From: Escherichia coli
Lineage (GTDB): Bacteria > Pseudomonadota > Gammaproteobacteria > Enterobacterales > Enterobacteriaceae
DNA: 64,000 bases
Reading direction: 5' to 3' (one strand)
NCBI RefSeq assembly: GCF_009931435.1
Contig: NZ_CP043414.1
In this document: positions 9,118 to 51,315 of the stretch, one piece after another
How positions within the stretch are numbered: position 1 is the stretch's first letter
Layout: each line of letters opens with the position of its first letter
Position numbers and translations under genes: made by a program
Notes under the pieces: generated by a model
Told to the model about the DNA's origin: nothing
Seen by the model: the letters and a program-made list of their open reading frames with translations, nothing else
Database searches by the model: none

Positions 9118-10309
9118 GCAACTCTGGCGCTGGCGTGGCATAACCGGCGACGGCAATGCGCAAGATGGGATGCTATGGGCAGAGAGCCGTGCTTTGCTGC
9201 TCATAGCACTACAGCAACAGATGGTTACCCCACTTAGCCTGAAGCGAATCGCCATCAATTCTGCGCAGTGGCGAGGAGATAAAAGCGCGGAAGTCATTCA
9301 TCAACTGGCGACGCTACTCAAAGCCGGGTTAACGCTTTCTGAAGGGCTGGCACTGCTGGCGGAACAGCATCCCAGTAAGCAATGGCAAGCGTTGCTGCAA
9401 TCGCTGGCGCACGATCTCGAACAGGGCATTGCTTTTTCCAATGCCTTATTACCCTGGTCAGAGGTATTTCCGCCGCTCTATCAGGCAATGATCCGCACGG
9501 GGGAATTGACTGGTAAGTTAGATGAATGTTGCTTTGAACTTGCTCGACAGCAAAAAGCCCAACGTCAGTTAGCCGATAAAGTGAAATCAGCGTTGCGTTA
9601 TCCCATCATCATTTTAGCGATGGCAATCATGGTGGTTGTGGCAATGCTGCATTTTGTACTGCCGGAGTTTGCTGCTATCTACAAGACCTTTAACACCCCA
9701 TTACCGGCGCTAACGCAGGGGATCATGACGCTGGCAGACTTTAGTGGCGAATGGGGCTGGCTGCTGCTGTTGTTCGGCTTACTGCTGGCAATAGCCAATA
9801 AGTTGCTGGTGCGCCGCCCGACCTGGCTCATCGTGAGGCAAAAATCACTGTTACGCATCCCAATTATGGGTTCACTGATGCGAGGGCAAAAACTCACGCA
9901 GATCTTTACGATTCTGGCGCTGACACAAAGTGCAGGCATTACTTTTTTACAGGGCGTAGAGAGCGTCAGAGCAACAATGCGCTGTCAGTACTGGGAGCAA
10001 CTTCTGACACAAATCCAGCACGATATCAGTAACGGTCATCCTATCTGGCTGGCGCTAAAAAATGCCGGTGAGTTTAGCCCGCTCTGTTTGCAATTAGTGA
10101 GAACAGGAGAGGCATCCGGTTCGCTGGATCTCATGTTAGACAACCTCGCCCGTCATCATCGGGATAACACCATGGCGCTGGCGGATAACCTTGCAGCCTT
10201 GCTCGAACCGGTGTTGCTGGTCATAACGGGAGGAATTATCGGTACGCTAGTGGTGGCAATGTATTTGCCAATTTTCCATTTAGGCGATGCGATGAGTGGG
10301 ATGGGATAA
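9107..10309 (+). CDS. hofC: Type IV pilus inner-membrane platform protein (PilC/GspF family), 400 aa
   Basis: Track ORF; MASKQLWRWRGITGDGNAQDGMLWAESRALL...; overlaps hofB 3' end by 11 nt. Confidence 0.94.
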   Translation: MASKQLWRWRGITGDGNAQDGMLWAESRALLLIALQQQMVTPLSLKRIAINSAQWRGDKSAEVIHQLATLLKAGLTLSEGLALLAEQHPSKQWQALLQSLAHDLEQGIAFSNALLPWSEVFPPLYQAMIRTGELTGKLDECCFELARQQKAQRQLADKVKSALRYPIIILAMAIMVVVAMLHFVLPEFAAIYKTFNTPLPALTQGIMTLADFSGEWGWLLLLFGLLLAIANKLLVRRPTWLIVRQKSLLRIPIMGSLMRGQKLTQIFTILALTQSAGITFLQGVESVRATMRCQYWEQLLTQIQHDISNGHPIWLALKNAGEFSPLCLQLVRTGEASGSLDLMLDNLARHHRDNTMALADNLAALLEPVLLVITGGIIGTLVVAMYLPIFHLGDAMSGMG

Positions 10310-13737: not shown

Positions 13738-13770
13738 ATAAAAAAGGCGCAGAATCCTGCGCCTTTTGTT
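13738..13770 (-). terminator. Intrinsic terminator downstream of secA
   Basis: On minus strand: GGCGCAGGATTCTGCGCC followed by TTTTTTAT, about 20 nt after the secA stop. Confidence 0.65.
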
Positions 13771-13783
13771 TCAAGAGTTAGCT

Positions 13784-16489
13784 TTATTGCAGGCGACCGT
13801 GGCACTGCTTGTATTTTTTACCAGAACCGCACGGGCAAGGATCATTACGTCCAACTTTGCGTTCACCGGTTTGTGCCGCCAGTGCAGCTGCGGCTGCAGA
13901 GTCATCATCCTGATGGCTAAGCTGCTGCATTTGCGCTAAACGCTCGGCTTCCATACGACGCTGTTGTTCCAGCTCTTCAACCTCTTCAGGCATACGTACC
14001 TGGACTTTGCTCAGCGTGCTGATGACTTCATATTTCAGCGACTCCAGCATCGCTGCAAACATGGAGAACGATTCACGTTTGTATTCCTGCTTCGGATCTT
14101 TCTGTGCATAGCCACGCAGGTGGATACCCTGACGCAGATAATCCATCGCCGCCAGGTGCTCTTTCCACAGGGAGTCAAGCGTTTGCAGCATGACGCCTTT
14201 CTCGAAGTGACGCATCATCTCAGCGCCAACCACTTCTTCTTTACGCTGATACACTTCGATGGACTGCGCCAGAATACGCTCACGCAGCGTCTCTTCATGC
14301 AGTTCTGGCTCTTTGTCCAGCCACTCGGCAATCGGCAAATCGAGGTCGAAATCGTTCTTCAGACGTTCCTGCAGCCCCGGAATATCCCACATTTCTTCCA
14401 GCGACTGCGGCGGAATGTAGGCATCGATGGTCGCTTTGAACACATCTTCACGAATGCTGTTGATGGTATCGCTCACATCGCTGACATCCAGCAGTTCATT
14501 ACGCTGGGAGTAAATAGCGCGACGCTGATCGTTAGCCACGTCATCATATTCCAGCAGTTGCTTACGAATATCGAAGTTACGGCTTTCAACTTTACGCTGA
14601 GCGTTGGCAATCGCTTTGGTCACCCACGGGTGCTCGATGGCTTCGCCTGGTTTCATACCCAGTTTACGCATCATGCCGGAAACACGGTCAGAAGCAAAAA
14701 TACGCATCAGCGCATCTTCCATCGACAGGTAGAAACGGGAAGAACCGGCATCCCCCTGGCGCCCAGAACGACCGCGTAGCTGGTTATCGATACGACGAGA
14801 TTCGTGACGTTCTGTACCGATGATATGCAGACCACCTGCAGCCAGTACCGCATCGTGACGCACCTGCCAGTCGGCTTTGATTTTTTCAATTTGCTCTGCG
14901 GTCGGATTTTCCAGCGCGGCAACTTCTGCCTGCCAGCTACCACCGAGCACAATATCTGTACCACGACCCGCCATGTTAGTCGCGATAGTCACCGCCGCCG
15001 GATAACCCGCTTGTGCAACAATCGCTGCTTCGTTAGCGTGGAATTTGGCGTTCAGAACGTTGTGTTTGATACCGGCTTTGGTCAGCTCGTTTGACACCAA
15101 TTCCGATTTTTCGATGGAGATAGTACCCACCAGCACTGGCTGGCCCTTCGCAGTACGCTCTTTGATATCTTCGATGATCGCCTGGATTTTTTCCGCTTCA
15201 GTCATATAGACCAGATCTGGCAGATCTTTACGAATCATCGGACGGTTGGTTGGAACAACAACGGTATCCAGCTTGTAGATTGAGCTAAATTCGAAAGCTT
15301 CGGTATCAGCAGTACCGGTCATGCCCGCCAGTTTTTCATACAAACGGAAGTAGTTCTGGAAGGTGATCGACGCCAGCGTCTGGTTTTCGTTCTGGATCTG
15401 TACACCTTCTTTCGCTTCCACTGCCTGATGCAGGCCATCGGACCAGCGACGTCCCTGCATGGTACGACCGGTGTGTTCATCAACGATGATAACTTCACCA
15501 TCTTTAACGATGTAGTCTACGTCACGGGTAAACAGTGCGTGAGCACGCAGCGCCGCGGTTACGTGGTGCATCAGCATAATATTAGCCGGAGAGTACAGCG
15601 ACTCACCTTCATCCATGATGCCTTCTTTCACCAGCAGCTCTTCGATCAGCACCAGACCACGTTCGGTCAGGTTCACCTGGCGAGATTTTTCGTCCACCGA
15701 GAAGTGGCCTTCGCCCTGGAAGGTTTCGGAGTCTTCTTTTTCCTGACGGATCAGGTGCGGAATAATTTTATTCACGCGTTTATACATTTCCGAGCTGTCT
15801 TCTGCCGGGCCGGAAATGATCAGCGGTGTACGCGCTTCATCGATCAGGATGGAGTCCACTTCGTCCACCAGCGCATAGTGCAGTTTACGCTGTACACGTT
15901 CTTCAGGGCTGAACGCCATGTTATCGCGCAGGTAGTCAAAGCCGTATTCGTTGTTCGTACCGTAAGTGATGTCAGCTGCGTAAGCTTCACGCTTCGCCGG
16001 TGCTGGCATACCCGGCAGGTTGATACCGACAGTCAGGCCAAGGAATTCAAACAGCGGACGGTTGTTTTCGGCGTCACGTTGCGCCAGGTAGTCGTTGACG
16101 GTAACAACGTGTACGCCCTTACCGGTTAATGCGTTCAGGTAAGCAGGCAGCGTTGCGGTCAGGGTTTTACCTTCACCGGTACGCATTTCCGCGATGCAGC
16201 GTTCGTTAAGAACCATACCGCCGAGTAACTGAACGTCGAAGTGACGCATACCAAAGACGCGCTTACTTGCCTCACGCACCACAGCGAAAGCTTCTGGGAT
16301 CAGATTTTCCAGCACTTCGCCTTTTTCCAGACGTGCACGAAACTCTGCGGTTTTCCCTTTCAGTTCTTCGTCGGAGAGTTTTTCCATCTCCGGTTCCATG
16401 GCATTGATGATGTTGACGACTTTGCGCATCCGGCGCAGGGTGCGATCGTTACGACTACCGAAAACTTTAGTTAATAATTTGATTAGCAT
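13784..16489 (-). CDS. secA: Preprotein translocase ATPase SecA, 901 aa
   Basis: Track ORF; [43 protein letters not shown]... C-terminal zinc-binding [14 protein letters not shown]. Confidence 0.97.
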
Positions 16490-18311: not shown

Positions 18312-19463
18312 TTAATCAGCTTGCTTACGCAGGAATGCTGGGATATCCAGATAATCCGGCTCTTTCGCAGTTTGCGGCGCATTGTCATTCACGACTTTAG
18401 CAACCGGCTTCTGCTCCTGGGTCAGCGGAGCCATCCCGTGCTGCTGGTAGCGATCCATCACTGGCTGCTGAACCTGCTTATTGGTCACCAGAGTGATTTC
18501 AGGACGTTTGTCCATACCGATACCTGTCGCAACAACAGTTACGCGCAGCTCGTCATTCATATCCGGGTCAAGAGAAGTACCGATAACGACAGTTGCGTTG
18601 TCGGATGCAAATGCACGGATGGTGTTACCTACCGTTTCGAACTCATCCAGACGCAGGTCGAAGCCCGCCGTGATGTTAACCAGCACGCCGCGCGCGCCAG
18701 ACAGATCGATATCTTCCAGCAGCGGAGAGGAAATAGCCATTTCAGCAGCTTCTTCCGCACGGTCTTCGCCGCTCGCCACACCAGAACCCATCATTGCGTA
18801 GCCCATTTCAGACATTACGGTACGTACGTCTGCAAAGTCCACGTTCATCAGGCCTGGACGAGTAATCAGTTCAGCGATACCTTGCACAGCACCTTTCAGT
18901 ACATCGTTCGCTGCGCCAAATGCATCCAGCAGGGAGATACCGCGGCCCAAGACTTTCAGCAGTTTGTCGTTAGGGATAGTGATCAGAGAGTCCACATGCT
19001 TGGACAGTTCAGTGATCCCCTGCTCAGCGAATGCCATACGCTTCTTGCCTTCAAAGTTGAAAGGCTTAGTCACGACAGCAACGGTCAGGATCCCCAAATC
19101 TTTTGCCACTTCAGCGACAACTGGTGCTGCACCAGTACCGGTACCACCACCCATACCCGCAGCAATAAAGACCATGTCTGCACCTTCCAGCGCCGCACGC
19201 AGTGCATCGCGATCCTCATCAGCCGCATTACGGCCAACTTCTGGATTTGCGCCAGCTCCCAGTCCTTTGGTGATACCGCTACCGATTTGAATCGTCTGTC
19301 CAACCGCTGTTTTACGCAGCGCTTGTGCATCGGTATTTACCGCGAAGAATTCAACACCTTCAATGCGCTCGCGCACCATGTGTTCAACAGCATTACCGCC
19401 GCCGCCGCCGACGCCGATGACTTTAATCACCGCGTCATTGGTAAGTTCCATTGGTTCAAACAT
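18312..19463 (-). CDS. ftsZ: Cell division GTPase FtsZ, 383 aa
   Basis: Track ORF; [30 protein letters not shown]... tubulin signature GGGTGTG present. Confidence 0.97.
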
Positions 19464-19523
19464 AGTTTCTCTCCGATTTGTGCCTGTCGCCTGAGGCCGT
19501 AATTATCGTCGACCTCATAAAAA

Positions 19524-20786
19524 TTAAAACTCTTTTCGCAGCCAACTATTGAGTCGCTTGATCCACGAGCCAACTGATGCTGTAACACGTTTTTCTACTT
19601 CAGCTTCACCGTTAAGATGTGACTCTTTCCCGTAGTGAAGCAATCCCACCGCCGTCGAATAATACGGCTCCTGAGCATAATCCGTTAAACCGGTAATGTT
19701 CAGCGGCGCGCCGATACGCACTTGCGTATGAAACACGCGCTGAGCACAGGCTGCAAGACCTTCGATCTGCGCTGCGCCACCAGTTAAAACAATGCCTGCC
19801 GCCAGGTGATGTTTAACCCCTTGTTGGCGAAGCTTTTCCTGCAACTGCAATATCTCTTCGTTGACCAGGTTGAGCAGCTCGGTATAGCGCGGCTCGATCA
19901 CCTCTGCCAGGGTCTGACGTTGCAGACTCCGCGGTGGACGACCGCCTACGCTCGGCACTTCCACGCTCTCATCTTTTCCAACGATGGAACCCAGCGCACA
20001 ACCGTGGCGAACTTTAATCGCTTCGGCGTCGCTTGGCGGCGTGCCAAAGGCGTAAGCGATATCACTGGTCACGACATTGCCAGCATAAGGAATTACCTTA
20101 GTGTGGCGCAATGCCCCACCGGTATAAACGGCGATATCCATTGTACCACCACCGATATCGACGACGCAGACACCCAGTTCACGTTCATCTTCCGTCAATA
20201 CCGAATAACTTGATGCCAGTCCGGCAAATATCAGTTGGTCAACTTTCAGCCCACAACGTTCAACCGCTTTGACGATGTTTTTCGCCATATCGTTGTGACA
20301 TGTGATCAGGTGCACTTTTGCCTGCATCCGCACGCCCGAAAGTCCTACCGGATTCTTGATCCCTTCCTGATAGTCAATCGCATACTCTTGCGGGATCACA
20401 TGCAGCACACGATGCTCATCGCGCACACGCACTGATTTCGCGGTATGGACGACGTTTTCCACATCTTCTTGCGTCACTTCTTCTTCAGAAATAGGCACCA
20501 TACCAATTTCATTCTGGCAGCTGATGTGCTTACCAGAAAGCGCCAGATATACCGAAGAGATCTGACAATCTGCCATCAATTCTGCCTGGTCAATGGCGCG
20601 TTGTACGCACTTGACCACGGATTCGAGGTCGTTCACCCCGCCTTTATCCATACCACGCGACGGGCAGCTGCCCACGCCAATGATATTGACCATACCGTCG
20701 GGCAGAACTTCCCCTACTAAAGCGGCAACCTTCGCGGTACCAATCTCCAGTCCTACTACCAGTTTTCTGTCCGTCGCCTTGATCAT
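19524..20786 (-). CDS. ftsA: Cell division protein FtsA (actin-like ATPase), 420 aa
   Basis: Track ORF; [39 protein letters not shown]... Confidence 0.96.
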
Positions 20787-40398: not shown

Positions 40399-41056
40399 AC
40401 TTAACTCCACTGTCACACTTAACTCCCTTTCCCTTATTGGAATGCAGAGAAATAATCCTCGAGAATATGATTTATCATGCATATAAAATAAGAAAAAGGA
40501 AAATGAGAAAAATTAGGAAAACATAAAGATACGGGTTCTTATAAAAACAGAACCCATTGCCGAGTAAAGAGTCATTTACCGCAGCATAATAATCCATAAT
40601 GTTTTTGTTGCGAAAACAATCTAATCATAACTACCGCGAATACTCAATCATCCACAAAATGGATTAAATGTGCTTTTTTAATAATTAATTTATATGTTTA
40701 ATGCATTAATTCTTAACATTAATAGAACAATAATATTCACCAAATGAATATCAAAAAATTAGCAAAACATATAATTCAATACAAATCATCAAGATAGGTT
40801 TTGTAACGCGTGCATTTTATCCCCCTTTTCCTCGTTGATTAGATGCAAAAATTTATTCTGAAATATGTCAACCGATGAAAAGCGTCGGTGGTTAAGCAGA
40901 AATTAATATCGCTTGTTTTAACCACCGCAGCACAATTAGCTAATTTGACGAATGCAGAACTCACTCTGGCGGAACGTTTTTGTTGCGTCAGGGTTGACAT
41001 CCGTTTTTGTATCCAGTAACTCTAAAAGCATATCGTATTCATCTGGAGCTGATTTA
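40399..41056. promoter_or_regulatory. AT-rich leuO-leuL divergent control region (H-NS/LeuO-controlled, promoter relay region)
   Basis: ~660 bp strongly AT-rich spacer between divergent leuO and leuLABCD, as in K-12; regulatory role from literature, sites not resolved. Confidence 0.5.
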
Positions 41057-41143
41057 ATGACTCACATCGTTCGCTTTATCGGTCTACTACTACTAAACGC
41101 ATCTTCTTTGCGCGGTAGACGAGTGAGCGGCATTCAGCATTAA
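41057..41143 (+). CDS. leuL: leu operon leader peptide, 28 aa, four consecutive CUA Leu codons
   Basis: Track ORF 40952..41143 trimmed to ATG at 41057: [28 protein letters not shown]; ggt cta cta cta cta aac read in sequence. Confidence 0.92.
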
Positions 41144-41165
41144 GCCAGCACGCAGTCAAACAAAA

Positions 41166-41193
41166 AACCCGCGCCATTGCGCGGGTTTTTTTA
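41166..41193 (+). terminator. leu attenuator terminator
   Basis: CCCGCGC-catt-GCGCGGG followed by TTTTTTTT between leuL and leuA. Confidence 0.85.
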
Positions 41194-45949: not shown

Positions 45950-46177
45950 AGAAAAAAGCCAGCAGATAATCACTGCTGGCGTGGCGATTAACACCAATAC
46001 TCAGTCACACATGATGTCCGCAAATCAGTAGTCAGAATGACTCCCCTCCCACTGCATCAGCTCTTCAAGCATGGTTAATCGTTGTGGGACGCTTAACCAA
46101 CGCAACCAGCACAACGTCGCTGTCGCGGTAAAATAGTGCTGATAAAACTGACGTATGGGGCACCTCCTTGCTTCATC
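45950..46177 (-). ncRNA. sgrS: Small RNA SgrS (glucose-phosphate stress)
   Basis: Minus strand begins GATGAAGCAAGGAGGTGCCCCATACGTCAG... and contains the conserved ptsG-pairing seed GTGTGACTGAGTATTGGTG followed by hairpin GCCAGCAGTGATTATCTGCTGGC + U-run; matches remembered SgrS. Ends are approximate. Confidence 0.85.
46025..46156 (-). pseudogene. sgrT: sgrT-homologous reading frame inside sgrS with start codon ATA instead of ATG
   Basis: Frame encodes (I)RQFYQHYFTATATLCWLRWLSVPQRLTMLEELMQWEGSHSDY, homologous to K-12 SgrT (MRQFYQHYFTATAKLCWLRW...); the codon aligned with the K-12 ATG is ATA (plus-strand tat at 46154-46156). No alternative in-frame start nearby. Confidence 0.55.
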
Positions 46178-46244: not shown

Positions 46245-47900
46245 ATGCCATCTGCTCGTCTGCAACAACAGTTCATCCGCCTGTGGCAATGCTGCGAGGG
46301 TAAATCGCAGGACACAACGCTCAACGAACTAGCGGAGTTATTGAGCTGCTCCCGTCGTCATATGCGCACCCTGCTCAATACCATGCAGGATCGCGGCTGG
46401 CTGACGTGGGAAGCGGAGGTCGGGCGCGGTAAACGCTCACGTTTAACATTCCTCTATACCGGGCTGGCGCTTCAGCAACAGCGAGCAGAGGACCTGCTGG
46501 AGCAGGATCGTATCGATCAACTGGTGCAACTGGTTGGCGACAAAGCGGCTGTGCGGCAAATGTTGGTTTCTCATTTGGGACGCAGCTTCCGCCAGGGGCG
46601 GCACATCCTGCGCGTGCTCTACTATCGTCCGTTGCGCAATCTGCTGCCCGGCAGTGCATTGCGCCGTTCCGAAACCCATATCGCCCGGCAAATCTTCAGT
46701 TCGCTAACGCGCATAAATGAGGAAAATGGGGAACTGGAAGCAGACATCGCCCACCACTGGCAGCAAATATCACCGCTTCACTGGCGCTTCTTTTTGCGTC
46801 CAGGAGTCCATTTTCATCATGGTCGTGAACTGGAAATGGACGATGTGATCGCCTCTTTAAAACGAATCAATACGCTGCCGCTTTATTCGCATATTGCGGA
46901 CATTGTGTCGCCGACGCCCTGGACGCTGGATATCCATCTCACGCAACCGGACCGCTGGTTACCGTTACTGCTGGGGCAAGTTCCGGCGATGATCCTGCCA
47001 CGAGAATGGGAAACCCTCAGTAACTTTGCCAGCCATCCCATCGGCACCGGTCCGTATGCGGTGATCCGCAACAGCACCAATCAACTGAAAATTCAGGCAT
47101 TCGATGACTTCTTCGGTTATCGCGCATTAATCGACGAAGTAAATGTCTGGGTTCTGCCAGAAATTGCCGACGAGCCAGCCGGCGGTCTGATGCTAAAAGG
47201 GCCGCAGGGCGAGGAAAAAGAGATTGAAAGTCGGCTGGAGGAAGGTTGCTACTATTTACTGTTCGACAGCCGCACCCATCGCGGGGCGAACCAGGCGGTA
47301 AGAGACTGGGTAAGCTATGTTCTCTCCCCCACCAACCTGGTCTATTTTGCCGAAGAACAGTACCAGCAACTCTGGTTTCCAGCCTACGGGCTGTTGCCGC
47401 GCTGGCATCATGCCCACCCGACGCATTGCGAAAAACCCGCCGGGCTGGAAAACCTCACCCTGACTTTTTATCAGGATCATATTGAGCATCGAGTGATTGC
47501 CGGGATCATGAAGCAGATTCTGGCAAGTTATCAGGTCACACTGAAAATTAAAGAGATCAGCTACGATCAGTGGCACGAAGGAGAGATCGAAAGTGACATC
47601 TGGCTTAACAGCGCCAACTTTACGCTGCCGCTGGATTTTTCGCTGTTCGCGCACTTGTGCGAGGTGCCGCTGCTCCAACACTGTATTCCGATCGACTGGC
47701 AAGCCGACGCCGCCCGCTGGCGCAATGGCGAAATGAATCTGGCGAACTGGTGCCAGCAACTGGTCGCCAGTAAAGCAATGGTGCCACTTATCCACCACTG
47801 GCTGATCATTCAGGGGCAACGCAGTATGCGCGGTCTGCGTATGAACACCCTCGGCTGGTTCGATTTTAAATCCGCGTGGTTTGCGCCGCCGGATCCATGA
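46245..47900 (+). CDS. sgrR: Transcriptional activator SgrR, 551 aa
   Basis: Track ORF 46224..47900 trimmed to ATG 46245: [44 protein letters not shown]... Confidence 0.93.
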
Positions 47901-47939
47901 TTGCTGGTTGATAACAAAATCACTACACTAACGCCGTTC

Positions 47940-48045
47940 TCAACGGGGTGCCACGCTGCCGCGTGCGCTGAGAAAATACCCGTCGAACCTGATCCGGATA
48001 ACGCCGGCGAAGGGATTTGAGGCTCCTTCTCAAGTCCTTTGCCAC
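47940..48045 (+). ncRNA. TPP (thi-box) riboswitch in thiBPQ leader (SroA region)
   Basis: GGGGTGCCACGCTGCCGCGTGCGCTGAGAAAATACCCGTCGAACCTGATCCGGATAACGCCGGCGAAGGGA read in sequence; contains the conserved CUGAGA and ACCUGAUC...GGGA thi-box elements. Boundaries approximate. Confidence 0.85.
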
Positions 48046-48063
48046 TCTTCTTTGAGGTGCAAA

Positions 48064-49047
48064 GTGTTAAAAAAATATCTTCCCCTGCTGTTGCTCTGTA
48101 CAGCACCCGCTTTCGCTAAACCCGTTCTGACTGTTTATACCTACGATTCCTTCGCCGCCGACTGGGGGCCAGGTCCGGTGGTGAAAAAAGCCTTTGAAGC
48201 CGACTGTAATTGCGAACTGAAACTGGTGGCGCTGGAAGATGGCGTTTCGCTTCTCAACCGTCTGCGGATGGAAGGCAAAAACAGTAAAGCCGATGTGGTG
48301 CTGGGGCTGGATAACAATCTGTTAGATGCCGCCAGCAAAACCGGGCTGTTTGCTAAAAGCGGTGTGGCAGCGGATGCCGTTAACGTTCCCGGTGGCTGGA
48401 ATAATGACACTTTTGTCCCATTTGATTACGGCTACTTCGCCTTCGTCTATGACAAGAACAAACTGAAAAATCCGCCGCAAAGCCTGAAAGAATTGGTTGA
48501 AAGCGATCAGAACTGGCGAGTGATTTATCAGGATCCGCGTACCAGTACGCCGGGCCTGGGCCTGTTGTTGTGGATGCAAAAAGTCTATGGCGATGACGCC
48601 CCGCAAGCCTGGCAGAAGCTGGCGAAGAAAACCGTCACGGTCACCAAAGGCTGGAGCGAAGCCTACGGCCTGTTTTTAAAAGGCGAAAGCGATCTGGTAC
48701 TGAGTTACACCACCTCTCCGGCTTATCACATTCTCGAAGAGAAGAAAGATAACTACGCCGCCGCGAACTTCAGCGAAGGTCACTATTTGCAAGTGGAAGT
48801 CGCCGCCCGCACCGCTGCCAGCAAACAGCCGGAGCTGGCGCAAAAATTCCTCCAGTTTATGGTTTCTCCGGCTTTTCAGAATGCGATCCCAACCGGCAAC
48901 TGGATGTATCCGGTGGCAAACGTCACGCTGCCTGCCGGTTTTGAAAAATTGACCAAACCGGCAACCACGCTGGAGTTCACGCCAGCCGAGGTGGCGGCAC
49001 AACGTCAGGCATGGATTAGCGAATGGCAACGCGCCGTCAGCCGTTAA
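48064..49047 (+). CDS. thiB: Thiamine ABC transporter periplasmic binding protein, 327 aa, GTG start
   Basis: Track ORF starts at TTG 48052; set to GTG 48064 (VLKKYLPLLLLCTAPAFAKPVLTVYTYDSFAADWG...) to match the known 327-aa protein. Confidence 0.92.
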   Translation: MLKKYLPLLLLCTAPAFAKPVLTVYTYDSFAADWGPGPVVKKAFEADCNCELKLVALEDGVSLLNRLRMEGKNSKADVVLGLDNNLLDAASKTGLFAKSGVAADAVNVPGGWNNDTFVPFDYGYFAFVYDKNKLKNPPQSLKELVESDQNWRVIYQDPRTSTPGLGLLLWMQKVYGDDAPQAWQKLAKKTVTVTKGWSEAYGLFLKGESDLVLSYTTSPAYHILEEKKDNYAAANFSEGHYLQVEVAARTAASKQPELAQKFLQFMVSPAFQNAIPTGNWMYPVANVTLPAGFEKLTKPATTLEFTPAEVAAQRQAWISEWQRAVSR

Positions 49048-50633
49048 TTCCCGGCTGGTTAATTCCAGGCGTAAGCGCCGCTACGCTTGTGGTGGCGGTT
49101 GCACTGGCGGCATTTCTCGCCCTGTGGTGGAACGCGCCGCAGGGTGACTGGATGGCAATCTGGCAGGACAGCTACCTGTGGCATGTGGTGCGCTTCTCCT
49201 TCTGGCAGGCGTTTCTCTCGGCGCTGCTCTCTGTCGTACCCGCGATATTCCTCGCCCGCGCGCTCTATCGCAGGCGCTTTCCGGGTCGGCTGACGCTGTT
49301 GCGTCTGTGCGCAATGACCTTGATCCTCCCGGTGCTGGTTGCTGTTTTCGGCATTCTTAGCGTCTATGGTCGCCAGGGCTGGCTGGCATCACTCTGCCAA
49401 TCGCTCGGTCTGGAGTGGACCTTTTCGCCCTACGGCCTGCAAGGTATTTTGCTGGCGCACGTATTTTTTAATCTGCCGATGGCGAGCCGCTTATTACTCC
49501 AGGCACTGGAAAACATTCCCGGCGAACAACGTCAACTTGCCGCCCAGCTTGGGATGCGCGGCTGGCATTTTTTCCGCTTCGTCGAATGGCCGTGGTTACG
49601 GCGTCAAATCCCGCCGGTTGCCGCGCTTATCTTTATGCTCTGTTTCGCCAGCTTCGCCACCGTGCTATCGCTGGGCGGCGGTCCGCAGGCGACCACTATC
49701 GAGCTGGCAATCTATCAGGCGCTGAGTTACGACTACGATCCCGCCCGCGCGGCGATGCTGGCGCTGATCCAGATGATATGTTGCCTTGGGCTGGTGCTGT
49801 TGAGTCAGCGACTAAGTAAAGCCATTGCGCCCGGCACCACGCTGCTGCAAGGCTGGCGCGACCCGGACGACCGTCTGCATAGCCGCATTTGCGACACGGT
49901 GTTAATTGTGCTGGCGCTGCTGCTGTTGCTGCCACCGTTACTAGCGGTGATTGTCGATGGGGTAAATCGCCAGTTGCCAGAGGTGCTGGCACAACCGGTG
50001 CTGTGGCAGGCGCTGTGGACCTCGTTGCGTATTGCGCTGGCGGCAGGCGTATTATGCGTAGTGCTGACCATGATGCTGCTATGGAGCAGTCGCGAATTGC
50101 GGGCACGGCAAAAAATGCTGGCGGGTCAGGCGCTGGAGATGAGCGGAATGCTGATCCTCGCCATGCCGGGGATTGTGCTGGCAACGGGCTTCTTTTTACT
50201 GCTCAACAACACTATCGGCCTGCCGCAATCTGCTGACGGCATTGTGATTTTCACCAATGCGTTAATGGCGATCCCTTACGCACTGAAAGTGCTGGAAAAC
50301 CCGATGCGCGATATCACCGCGCGTTACAGTATGTTGTGTCAGTCGCTGGGGATTGAAGGCTGGTCGCGCTTAAAAGTGGTGGAACTGCGCGCCCTGAAAC
50401 GTCCGCTGGCGCAGGCGCTGGCCTTTGCGTGTGTGCTGTCGATTGGTGATTTTGGCGTGGTGGCGTTGTTCGGTAACGATGATTTCCGTACCCTGCCGTT
50501 TTATCTCTACCAGCAAATTGGCTCCTATCGTAGCCAGGACGGTGCGGTGACCGCGTTAATTCTGCTGCTGCTCTGTTTTCTGCTGTTTACCGTGATTGAA
50601 AAACTACCGGGGCGAAATGTTAAAACTGACTGA
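49023..50633 (+). CDS. thiP: Thiamine ABC transporter permease, 536 aa
   Basis: Track ORF; [40 protein letters not shown]... Confidence 0.95.
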
Positions 50634-51315
50634 TATCACCTGGCTTTATCACCATTTGCCGATGCGTTTTAGCTTAACGGTGGAACCCGGCGAGCAGGTG
50701 GCGATCCTCGGGCCAAGCGGCGCGGGTAAAAGTACCCTGCTAAATTTGATCGCCGGTTTTCTGACGCCAGCCAGCGGTTCGCTGACTATCGATGGTATTG
50801 ATCACACCACGACGCCGCCGTCACGCCGTCCGGTATCGATGCTGTTTCAGGAGAACAACCTGTTCAGTCACCTGACGGTCGCGCAGAACATCGGGCTGGG
50901 GCTTAATCCTGGATTGAAGCTGAACGCGGCGCAGCAGGAGAAAATGCATGCTATCGCCCGCCAGATGGGGATTGATAATTTAATGGCGCGATTACCGGGC
51001 GAGCTTTCTGGCGGTCAGCGACAGCGCGTGGCGTTAGCGCGTTGTCTGGTGCGCGAACAGCCGATTTTATTGCTCGATGAACCGTTCTCTGCGCTCGATC
51101 CGGCGTTACGTCAGGAGATGCTGACGCTGGTGAGCACGAGCTGCCAGCAGCAAAAAATGACGCTATTGATGGTGTCGCACAGTGTGGAAGATGCGGCGCG
51201 GATCGCCACACGCTCGGTGGTGGTCGCTGACGGGCGCATCGCCTGGCAGGGTAAGACTGAAGAATTGTTGAGCGGTAAGGCGAGTGCTTCGGCAATATTG
51301 GGGATTACGGGTTAG
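50617..51315 (+). CDS. thiQ: Thiamine ABC transporter ATP-binding protein, 232 aa
   Basis: Track ORF 50596..51315 trimmed to [18 protein letters not shown]...; Walker [10 protein letters not shown]. Confidence 0.93.

Follow-up and report, generated by a model that had tools for sequence, protein, structure and literature searches.

Identification and structure of the TPP riboswitch

What occupies the spacer between sgrR and thiB in Escherichia coli, and from which codon is thiB translated when no ATG is found near the beginning of the gene? These questions were addressed in a stretch of 64,000 nucleotides from E. coli (RefSeq assembly GCF_009931435.1, contig NZ_CP043414.1), called the window below, and all positions are those of the window unless another sequence is named. 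An initial annotation had proposed a TPP riboswitch in this spacer and a non-ATG start of thiB, either GTG 48064 or TTG 48052. We consider it almost certain that the spacer consists of a promoter and a TPP-riboswitch leader that controls the translation of thiBPQ from GUG 48064. The basis of this conclusion here is the identity of the aptamer and of the start codon, the Shine-Dalgarno (SD) sequence, the pairing potential and its conservation, and the content of the operon; the TPP dependence, toeprint, mutant phenotypes, pausing, and share of Rho are carried over by analogy from published experiments on the identical K-12 sequence.

The whole window was scanned with Rfam 15 at the gathering threshold. 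The TPP riboswitch model, RF00059, gave a match on the + strand at 47934–48033 that covered the full model (positions 1–105 of 105) with 66.1 bits, above the gathering score of 54.3 (E = 9.3e-11). RefSeq also annotates a “TPP riboswitch” at the equivalent bases of the best-matching genome (99.6% identical), and thiB, thiP, and thiQ lie downstream, so the riboswitch of the initial annotation is borne out by the RF00059 scan that it had proposed as a check. The three sequence elements on which it had relied, CUGAGA, ACCUGAUC, and GGGA, were all located, as CTGAGA at 47968–47973, ACCTGATC at 47987–47994, and GGGA at 48012–48015.

According to the Rfam alignment, the aptamer is built from the helices P1 (47939–43/48017–21), P2 (47944–49/47976–82), P3 (47950–56/47961–68), P4 (47988–90/48011–13), and P5 (47994–97/48004–07), with canonical pairing in every listed pair, and it lacks the optional P3a hairpin. 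The aptamer proper, from P1 to P1, therefore occupies 47939–48021, and the expression platform extends to 48064 (Table 1). The initial annotation had assigned the entire spacer, 47901–48063, to the riboswitch. This holds for the aptamer and the platform downstream of it, but 47901–47935 must be separated as the promoter because the transcript begins at approximately 47936.

Table 1. Positions of the features of the thiBPQ leader and operon in the window.
Feature	Position	Strand	Basis
Putative −35 hexamer TTGCTG of the thiBPQ/sroA promoter	47901..47906	+	Directly after the sgrR stop codon (47898–47900)
Putative −10 hexamer TACACT	47924..47929	+	6 nt before the transcript start (47936)
TPP riboswitch aptamer (Rfam match)	47934..48033	+	RF00059; RefSeq feature at the same bases
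SroA equivalent (K-12 b4762, 93 nt; aptamer plus 7 nt)	47936..48028	+	K-12 sroA (75516–75608) via alignment
thi-box core CUGAGA ... ACCUGAUC ... GGGA, ligand-binding junctions	47968..48015	+	Pattern unique in the window
Anti-P1 (“antisequestering”) 3′ strand	48028..48043	+	Folding; conservation; K-12 mutational and SHAPE-Seq evidence (PMC10578472)
Predicted SD-sequestering hairpin (CUUUGC 48037–42/GCAAAG 48059–64; CUC 48045–47/GAG 48054–56)	48037..48064	+	Folding
SD sequence GAGG, 6 nt before GTG	48054..48057	+	Anti-SD duplex, −6.9 kcal/mol
GTG start codon of thiB	48064..48066	+	RefSeq; K-12 annotation; SD; orthologue alignment; K-12 mutants
thiB (tbpA), periplasmic thiamine/TPP-binding protein, 327 aa	48064..49047	+	NCBIfam TIGR01276 equivalog, 646.6 bits
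thiP, permease, 25-nt overlap with thiB	49023..50633	+	NF006953 equivalog, 1196 bits; ORF list
thiQ, ATPase, 17-nt overlap with thiP	50617..51315	+	NF008039 equivalog, 449.8 bits; ORF list

Manual placement of the promoter relied on the transcript start mapped in K-12, and the two putative hexamers, separated by 17 nt, fit a start at 47936. They match at 7 of 12 positions (3 of 6 in the −35 hexamer), and this weak match explains why a scan of 47600–48300 for consensus sigma-70 promoters reported none. Enterobacter, Leclercia, and Siccibacter read TACAAT at the −10 position. The 5′ end of SroA is the transcription start of thiBPQ, and in Salmonella the start was located by 5′ RACE at 129 nt upstream of the GTG (PMC3511261). 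The 3′ end of SroA coincides with the 5′ edge of the strand that is predicted to invade P1, and it may be produced either by Rho termination and subsequent trimming or by processing.

Comparison with known TPP riboswitches

The element is the well-studied E. coli thiB/tbpA TPP riboswitch (SroA) and was thus already known. As cited in PMC10578472, its prediction dates from 2002 (Rodionov 2002) and the mapping of its transcript start from 2003 (Vogel 2003), and its mechanism was dissected from 2017 to 2024 (PMC5499598, PMC8609307, PMC10578472, PMC11487190). The present analysis adds nothing to this published knowledge of the riboswitch itself. Its value for annotation is that both the element and the GTG start could be recognized correctly from sequence alone and the TTG alternative could be rejected.

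The K-12 thiB (tbpA)/SroA locus (b4762) has the same arrangement of sgrR, leader, and thiBPQ, and its leader is identical in P1, P2, P4, P5, the junctions, the linker, the SD sequence, the spacer, and the GUG. The coordinates of the transcription start, the SD sequence, and the start codon map one to one, and K-12 b0068 is likewise 327 aa long. The leaders differ in the P3 loop, where the window has UGC at 47957–59 and K-12 has GUA with the stem kept, and at one loop base of the sequestering hairpin (C48050 in the window, U in K-12); the ThiB signal peptide carries a few substitutions. A functional difference from the K-12 leader is not expected. In K-12, the mutation G35C, which falls in CUGAGA at the base equivalent to 47970, abolishes regulation, and regulation is also lost in the mutant G17C (PMC11487190, PMC10578472). 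TPP lowers the toeprint of the K-12 leader 2.2-fold, with a Kswitch of ∼0.6 μM (PMC11487190, PMC10578472). By analogy with this leader, which is identical at all functional positions, TPP binding and the response of expression would be expected of the leader in the window.

Related leaders share the aptamer class but differ in the platform. The tbpA leader of Salmonella Typhimurium (sYJ20, SroA) is a THI-box leader that starts 129 nt before a GTG and yields a stable RNA of ∼100 nt; it belongs to a different genus, and a role in antibiotic stress has been claimed for Salmonella only (PMC3511261). E. coli thiM, for whose aptamer PMC10578472 cites a crystal structure, follows the same logic, in that TPP stabilizes P1 and the SD sequence is sequestered, and Rho terminates inside the open reading frame (ORF) as a consequence of the untranslated mRNA. 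However, its platform sequence is different, and it precedes a gene for a biosynthetic or salvage kinase and not for a transporter. The linker that duplicates the 5′ P1 strand and acts as a strand-displacement invader is found in thiB and not in thiM (PMC10578472). E. coli thiC resembles thiB in having a TPP aptamer, a sensing window set by an anti-P1 helix, and pause sites close to the start codon, but it has a Rho-binding site within the riboswitch and a Rho termination score of 12, compared with 3.0 for thiB.

Start codon and Shine-Dalgarno sequence of thiB

Counted from GTG 48064, no in-frame ATG occurs before codon 69 (48268), so the earlier statement that the first ATG lies far inside the gene is correct. 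The only start-like codons in frame upstream of this ATG are TTG 48052, at which the mechanically called ORF opens, and GTG 48064, four codons further downstream. RefSeq and the K-12 annotation both begin thiB at the base equal to 48064, and positions 1–324 of the TIGR01276 model align with residues 6–327 of the protein counted from this base. The duplex with the anti-SD sequence at the 3′ end of 16S rRNA was −6.9 kcal/mol for GTG 48064, compared with −0.1 kcal/mol for the 20 nt before TTG 48052.

To collect orthologues, a degenerate pattern representing the ThiB peptide YDSFxxDWGPG was searched for in GTDB representative genomes, and 120 loci were obtained. Among these, 34 Enterobacterales thiB loci were compared, spanning Citrobacter, Enterobacter, Klebsiella, Kluyvera, Leclercia, Pluralibacter, Siccibacter, Erwinia, Pantoea, Tatumella, Serratia, Rahnella, Yersinia, Edwardsiella, Budvicia, and Arsenophonus. 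At the position aligned with 48064, GTG was found in 32 of the 34 loci, TTG in two (Rahnella and Arsenophonus), and ATG in none.

Published K-12 data can be placed directly on the window because K-12 position +1 corresponds to 47936 and the mutated bases agree base for base (PMC11487190). In K-12, translation is barely detectable in the mutant U130A (window 48065), the 30S/tRNA-fMet toeprint at C144 (+16; window 48079) fits a GUG in the P site, and G121C (window 48056), which disrupts the SD sequence, causes low expression that no longer responds to TPP (PMC11487190). The Salmonella orthologue has also been drawn with a GTG start (PMC3511261). The annotations, the conservation in Enterobacterales, and these K-12 results support the proposed start at GTG 48064. 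The location of GAGG within the 3′ arm of the sequestering hairpin, together with the effect of G121C in K-12, also bears out the proposal that the SD sequence lies in the expression platform.

Two alternatives concern the identity of the element and of its start codon. Motifs as short as CTGAGA are common when taken singly, and a chance resemblance to a thi-box without regulatory function might be suspected on that account. However, the gapped CTGAGA/ACCTGATC/GGGA pattern occurred once on both strands of the 64 kb and in none of 100 dinucleotide-preserving shuffles, the Rfam match is full length at E = 9e-11, and the motif keeps its position upstream of thiB from Alphaproteobacteria to Enterobacterales. 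Together with the direct K-12 experiments (PMC10578472, PMC11487190), this already refutes a chance origin and leaves it a negligible probability. Initiation at TTG 48052, which the initial annotation had kept as a second option, would produce a 331-aa precursor beginning MRCKVLKK. This in-frame codon comes first among the start-like codons of the ORF, the additional MRCK would still be compatible with the n-region of a signal peptide, and several Enterobacter and Citrobacter loci also have TTG at the aligned position. Nevertheless, no SD sequence precedes it, and TTG 48052–54 itself overlaps the SD sequence of the GTG. Elsewhere the aligned codon is variable (CTG, ATG, CAG, or GAA), with stop codons in Kluyvera (TAA) and Enterobacteriaceae RIT691 (TAG), and Pluralibacter has TGA one codon further upstream. 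Because of the missing SD sequence and the variable or stop codon at this position, TTG 48052 was rejected as a start. RefSeq and K-12 begin at the GTG, and in K-12 both the loss of translation in U130A and the C144 toeprint point to the GUG (PMC11487190), so that use of the TTG is highly improbable.

Expression platform and switching model

Folding of 47936–48085 predicted an anti-P1 hairpin (48014–22/48028–36) and the SD-sequestering hairpin. The linker sequence UCUCA (48028–32) is a copy of the 5′ P1 strand at 47938–42. In the predicted alternative pairing, UCUCAAGU is the partner of the 3′ P1 strand (48015–22), and CCUUUGCC (48036–43) is the partner of GGCGAAGG in the aptamer (48006–13); the latter pairing lengthens the anti-P1 helix and takes away the 5′ arm of the sequestering hairpin. 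An alternative SD register (A44–U58, C45–G57, and U46–G56) was worse, at −31.5 compared with −36.3 kcal/mol.

These pairings are conserved. The CUUUGC/GCAAAG stem is present in 27 of 28 Enterobacterales sequences, and across these 28 sequences 92% and 89% of cells retain the two alternative pairings, compared with 30–57% for slid controls, in which the partners were shifted by 1–3 columns. For the anti-P1 pairing potential, the corresponding values are 89% and 38–57%. The stems are nearly invariant, and conservation is therefore accompanied by almost no covariation (RNAalifold covariation term, −0.09 kcal/mol), which makes covariation tests uninformative; two-sided changes were found only in the small CUC/GAG helix, in which 70% of cells were paired. 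The invariance of the strands can probably be explained by ligand binding, which would fix the aptamer strand and, through it, the complement of that strand and the second partner of this complement.

Structure prediction with and without constraints, which the initial annotation had recommended, gave a mixed outcome, in that the published helices were reproduced but a clean ON/OFF switch was not obtained. The unconstrained minimum free energy structure (−48.3 kcal/mol) contained the short anti-P1 hairpin and the sequestering hairpin side by side, the extended antisequestering state had −46.8 kcal/mol, and the enforced aptamer had −37.5 kcal/mol before any ligand or tertiary energy. The predicted pairing probability of the SD sequence was ∼0.76–0.79 in every ensemble, and only that of the spacer and GUG fell, from 0.71 to 0.36, when the extended antisequestering helix was enforced. 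Because the minimum free energy structure holds both hairpins, we take the folding results as pairing potential and not as evidence of switching.

In the model published for K-12, P1 is invaded by the copy of its 5′ strand that the linker carries, the ON state is the extended antisequestering stem, and the OFF state combines the TPP-stabilized P1 with the sequestering stem (PMC10578472, PMC11487190). A K-12 mutant with a weakened sequestering stem loses the TPP response (PMC10578472). In K-12, TPP is sensed mainly during transcription, pauses occur at 104, 117, and 136 (window 48039, 48052, and 48071), and regulation is modest, at 2- to 4-fold (PMC11487190).

Transferred to the window, transcription would start at approximately 47936, and the first ∼86 nt of the thiBPQ leader would fold as the TPP-binding aptamer. 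With TPP bound, P1 (47939–43/48017–21) would be locked, leaving CCUUUGCC free to pair with GCAAAG (48059–64) and CUC with GAG. The resulting hairpin would bury both the SD sequence GAGG (48054–57) and the first base of the GUG (48064) and would therefore prevent binding of the 30S subunit. Without TPP, the linker from UCUCAAGU to CCUUUGCC (48028–43) would invade P1 and the 3′ strand of P4/P5 (48006–22), and the anti-P1/antisequestering helix formed in this way would remove the 5′ arm of the sequestering hairpin and allow initiation at GUG 48064. The choice between the two states would be made mainly during transcription, and repression would be accompanied by a secondary decrease at the mRNA level that is probably Rho dependent.

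The relative weight of this secondary layer could also be reversed, with the main output at the mRNA level, through Rho-dependent premature termination or decay in the leader or early thiB, and SD sequestration as the minor contribution. An mRNA-level output of this kind is consistent with a Rho termination score of 3.0 for thiB, obtained by RNAP ChIP in a rho R66S mutant (PMC5499598), with the 1.6- to 3.9-fold repression of transcriptional fusions by TPP, of which 2.4-fold persists in a GUG-dead mutant (PMC11487190), with the C-rich, G-poor, rut-like linker at 48023–48053 (12 C and 2 G among 31 bases), and with the end of the short SroA species at 48028. Against it, TPP repression of a reporter containing 12 nt of thiB was the same with bicyclomycin (PMC10578472), and toeprinting shows a direct TPP-dependent loss of 30S binding (PMC11487190). 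Intrinsic termination is not indicated either, as no intrinsic terminator was found on the + strand in 47600–48300 and in vitro transcription of the K-12 leader gave only the full-length product (PMC10578472). The contribution of Rho to thiB repression is disputed, and the two layers are not mutually exclusive; we regard a predominantly mRNA-level output as unlikely. A trans-acting role of the ∼93-nt aptamer RNA (SroA/sYJ20), independent of the control of thiBPQ, appears still less probable to us. In the K-12 annotation, sroA is listed as an ncRNA of its own at positions equivalent to 47936–48028, and the Salmonella study proposed a riboswitch-independent role in stress from the accumulation of the ∼100-nt species under tigecycline or tetracycline and from a subtle survival phenotype of the deletion that a plasmid copy complemented (PMC3511261). 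However, this RNA has no demonstrated target, the phenotype could stem from altered tbpA expression, as that study itself notes, and premature termination or 3′ trimming would be expected to leave behind a stable ligand-bound aptamer. Nothing in the window bears on a role in trans. We retain the cis-acting control of thiB initiation, with SD sequestration as its main output.

Conservation of the non-AUG start and variation of orthologous leaders

The strictly conserved non-AUG start of thiB in Enterobacterales goes mildly beyond the literature that we found, and a literature search for conservation of the GUG as a part of the riboswitch platform returned nothing specific in the searchable literature. 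A single G-to-A transition would give ATG, and neighboring thiB codons have diverged freely among the 34 Enterobacterales loci. This conservation suggests selection for a weak start in the riboswitch-controlled thiB, and a weak initiation codon may let a modest hairpin out-compete 30S binding more easily. Furthermore, G48064 forms the closing C–G pair of the sequestering helix in the Escherichia-type leader, so that selection could act on the base pair instead. The weak start is the more likely of these two versions because the G of the Vibrio GTG lies outside the sequestering helix. That the non-AUG start has itself been selected as a part of the expression platform is, in our assessment, a tentative possibility.

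The CTGAGA motif was found 144–290 nt upstream of the ThiB peptide match in almost all loci for which 250 nt or more of upstream sequence was available. Most of the Vibrio thiB loci seen use GTG, and Alphaproteobacteria mostly have an in-frame ATG near the equivalent position. By eye, the thiB leaders of four Vibrio loci (L007, L027, L057, and L083) appear to have the same three-strand design with different sequences. In these leaders, the aptamer strand GGCGUAGG can pair with CCUGUGCC, which would be compensatory relative to GGCGAAGG/CCUUUGCC in E. coli, and GCCGCUC can pair with GAGCGAGC over the SD region, both again as judged by eye.

A minor addition to the literature found is that, in some genera, ERIC-like repeats (GTGAATCCCCAGGAGC...GTGACTGGGGT) are inserted in the P3 loop of the orthologous thiB riboswitch. 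They were observed in Citrobacter werkmanii (L008, ∼9700–9860), Pseudocitrobacter faecalis (L068), and Kluyvera (L047, 4025–4199; positions are those of each locus). The distance from the 5′ strand of P2 to CUGAGA is 27 nt in the window, 151 nt in C. werkmanii, and 147 nt in P. faecalis. The Rfam scan of the C. werkmanii and P. faecalis loci gave no TPP match at the gathering score because of the insertion of ∼120 nt in P3, and these riboswitches would therefore escape routine annotation. The Kluyvera locus contains a shorter remnant (102 nt) and still has a TPP score of 59.7 bits.

Genomic setting

The gene order in this part of the window is the leu leader, sgrS/sgrT (−), sgrR (+; NCBIfam match, 1122.9 bits), the leader, thiB-thiP-thiQ (+), yabI (−), and araC (−). 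The overlaps of thiB with thiP (49023–49047) and of thiP with thiQ (50617–50633) are consistent with translational coupling, and control at the thiB start would therefore reach the whole transporter. An antisense ORF that overlaps the riboswitch (47810–48106, −; 98 aa) had no support and was rejected.

The 700 bases around the leader (47701–48400) matched 5,399 of 5,426 complete E. coli genomes. Most of these genomes were ∼95% identical and 13 were at least 99% identical, so the sequence belongs to a minority lineage at this locus; the best match was strain Z0117EC0005 (dog, South Korea). Among the matches listed, all records that cover the leader are annotated with the order “sgrR, riboswitch, thiB.” In approximately 1,000 genomes, part of sgrR was missing or divergent, and the match covered only 72% of the query.

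Several other Rfam families also matched the window above their gathering scores: SgrS (45951–46177, −; 226 bits), the leucine operon leader (41043–41192, +; 147.5 bits), tp2 (1805–1918, +; 103.4 bits), and STnc40 (13740–13808, −; 77.6 bits), all of which are expected for the E. coli chromosome here. RF02797, “PssrA, plasmid-encoded Shigella sRNA A,” gave a full-length match at 19455–19544 (−; 105 bits), at the chromosomal ftsA–ftsZ junction. This DNA is present in 5,424 of the 5,426 E. coli genomes, and the family is therefore not specific to plasmids or to Shigella; the match may simply represent the 3′ end of ftsA and the ftsZ leader.
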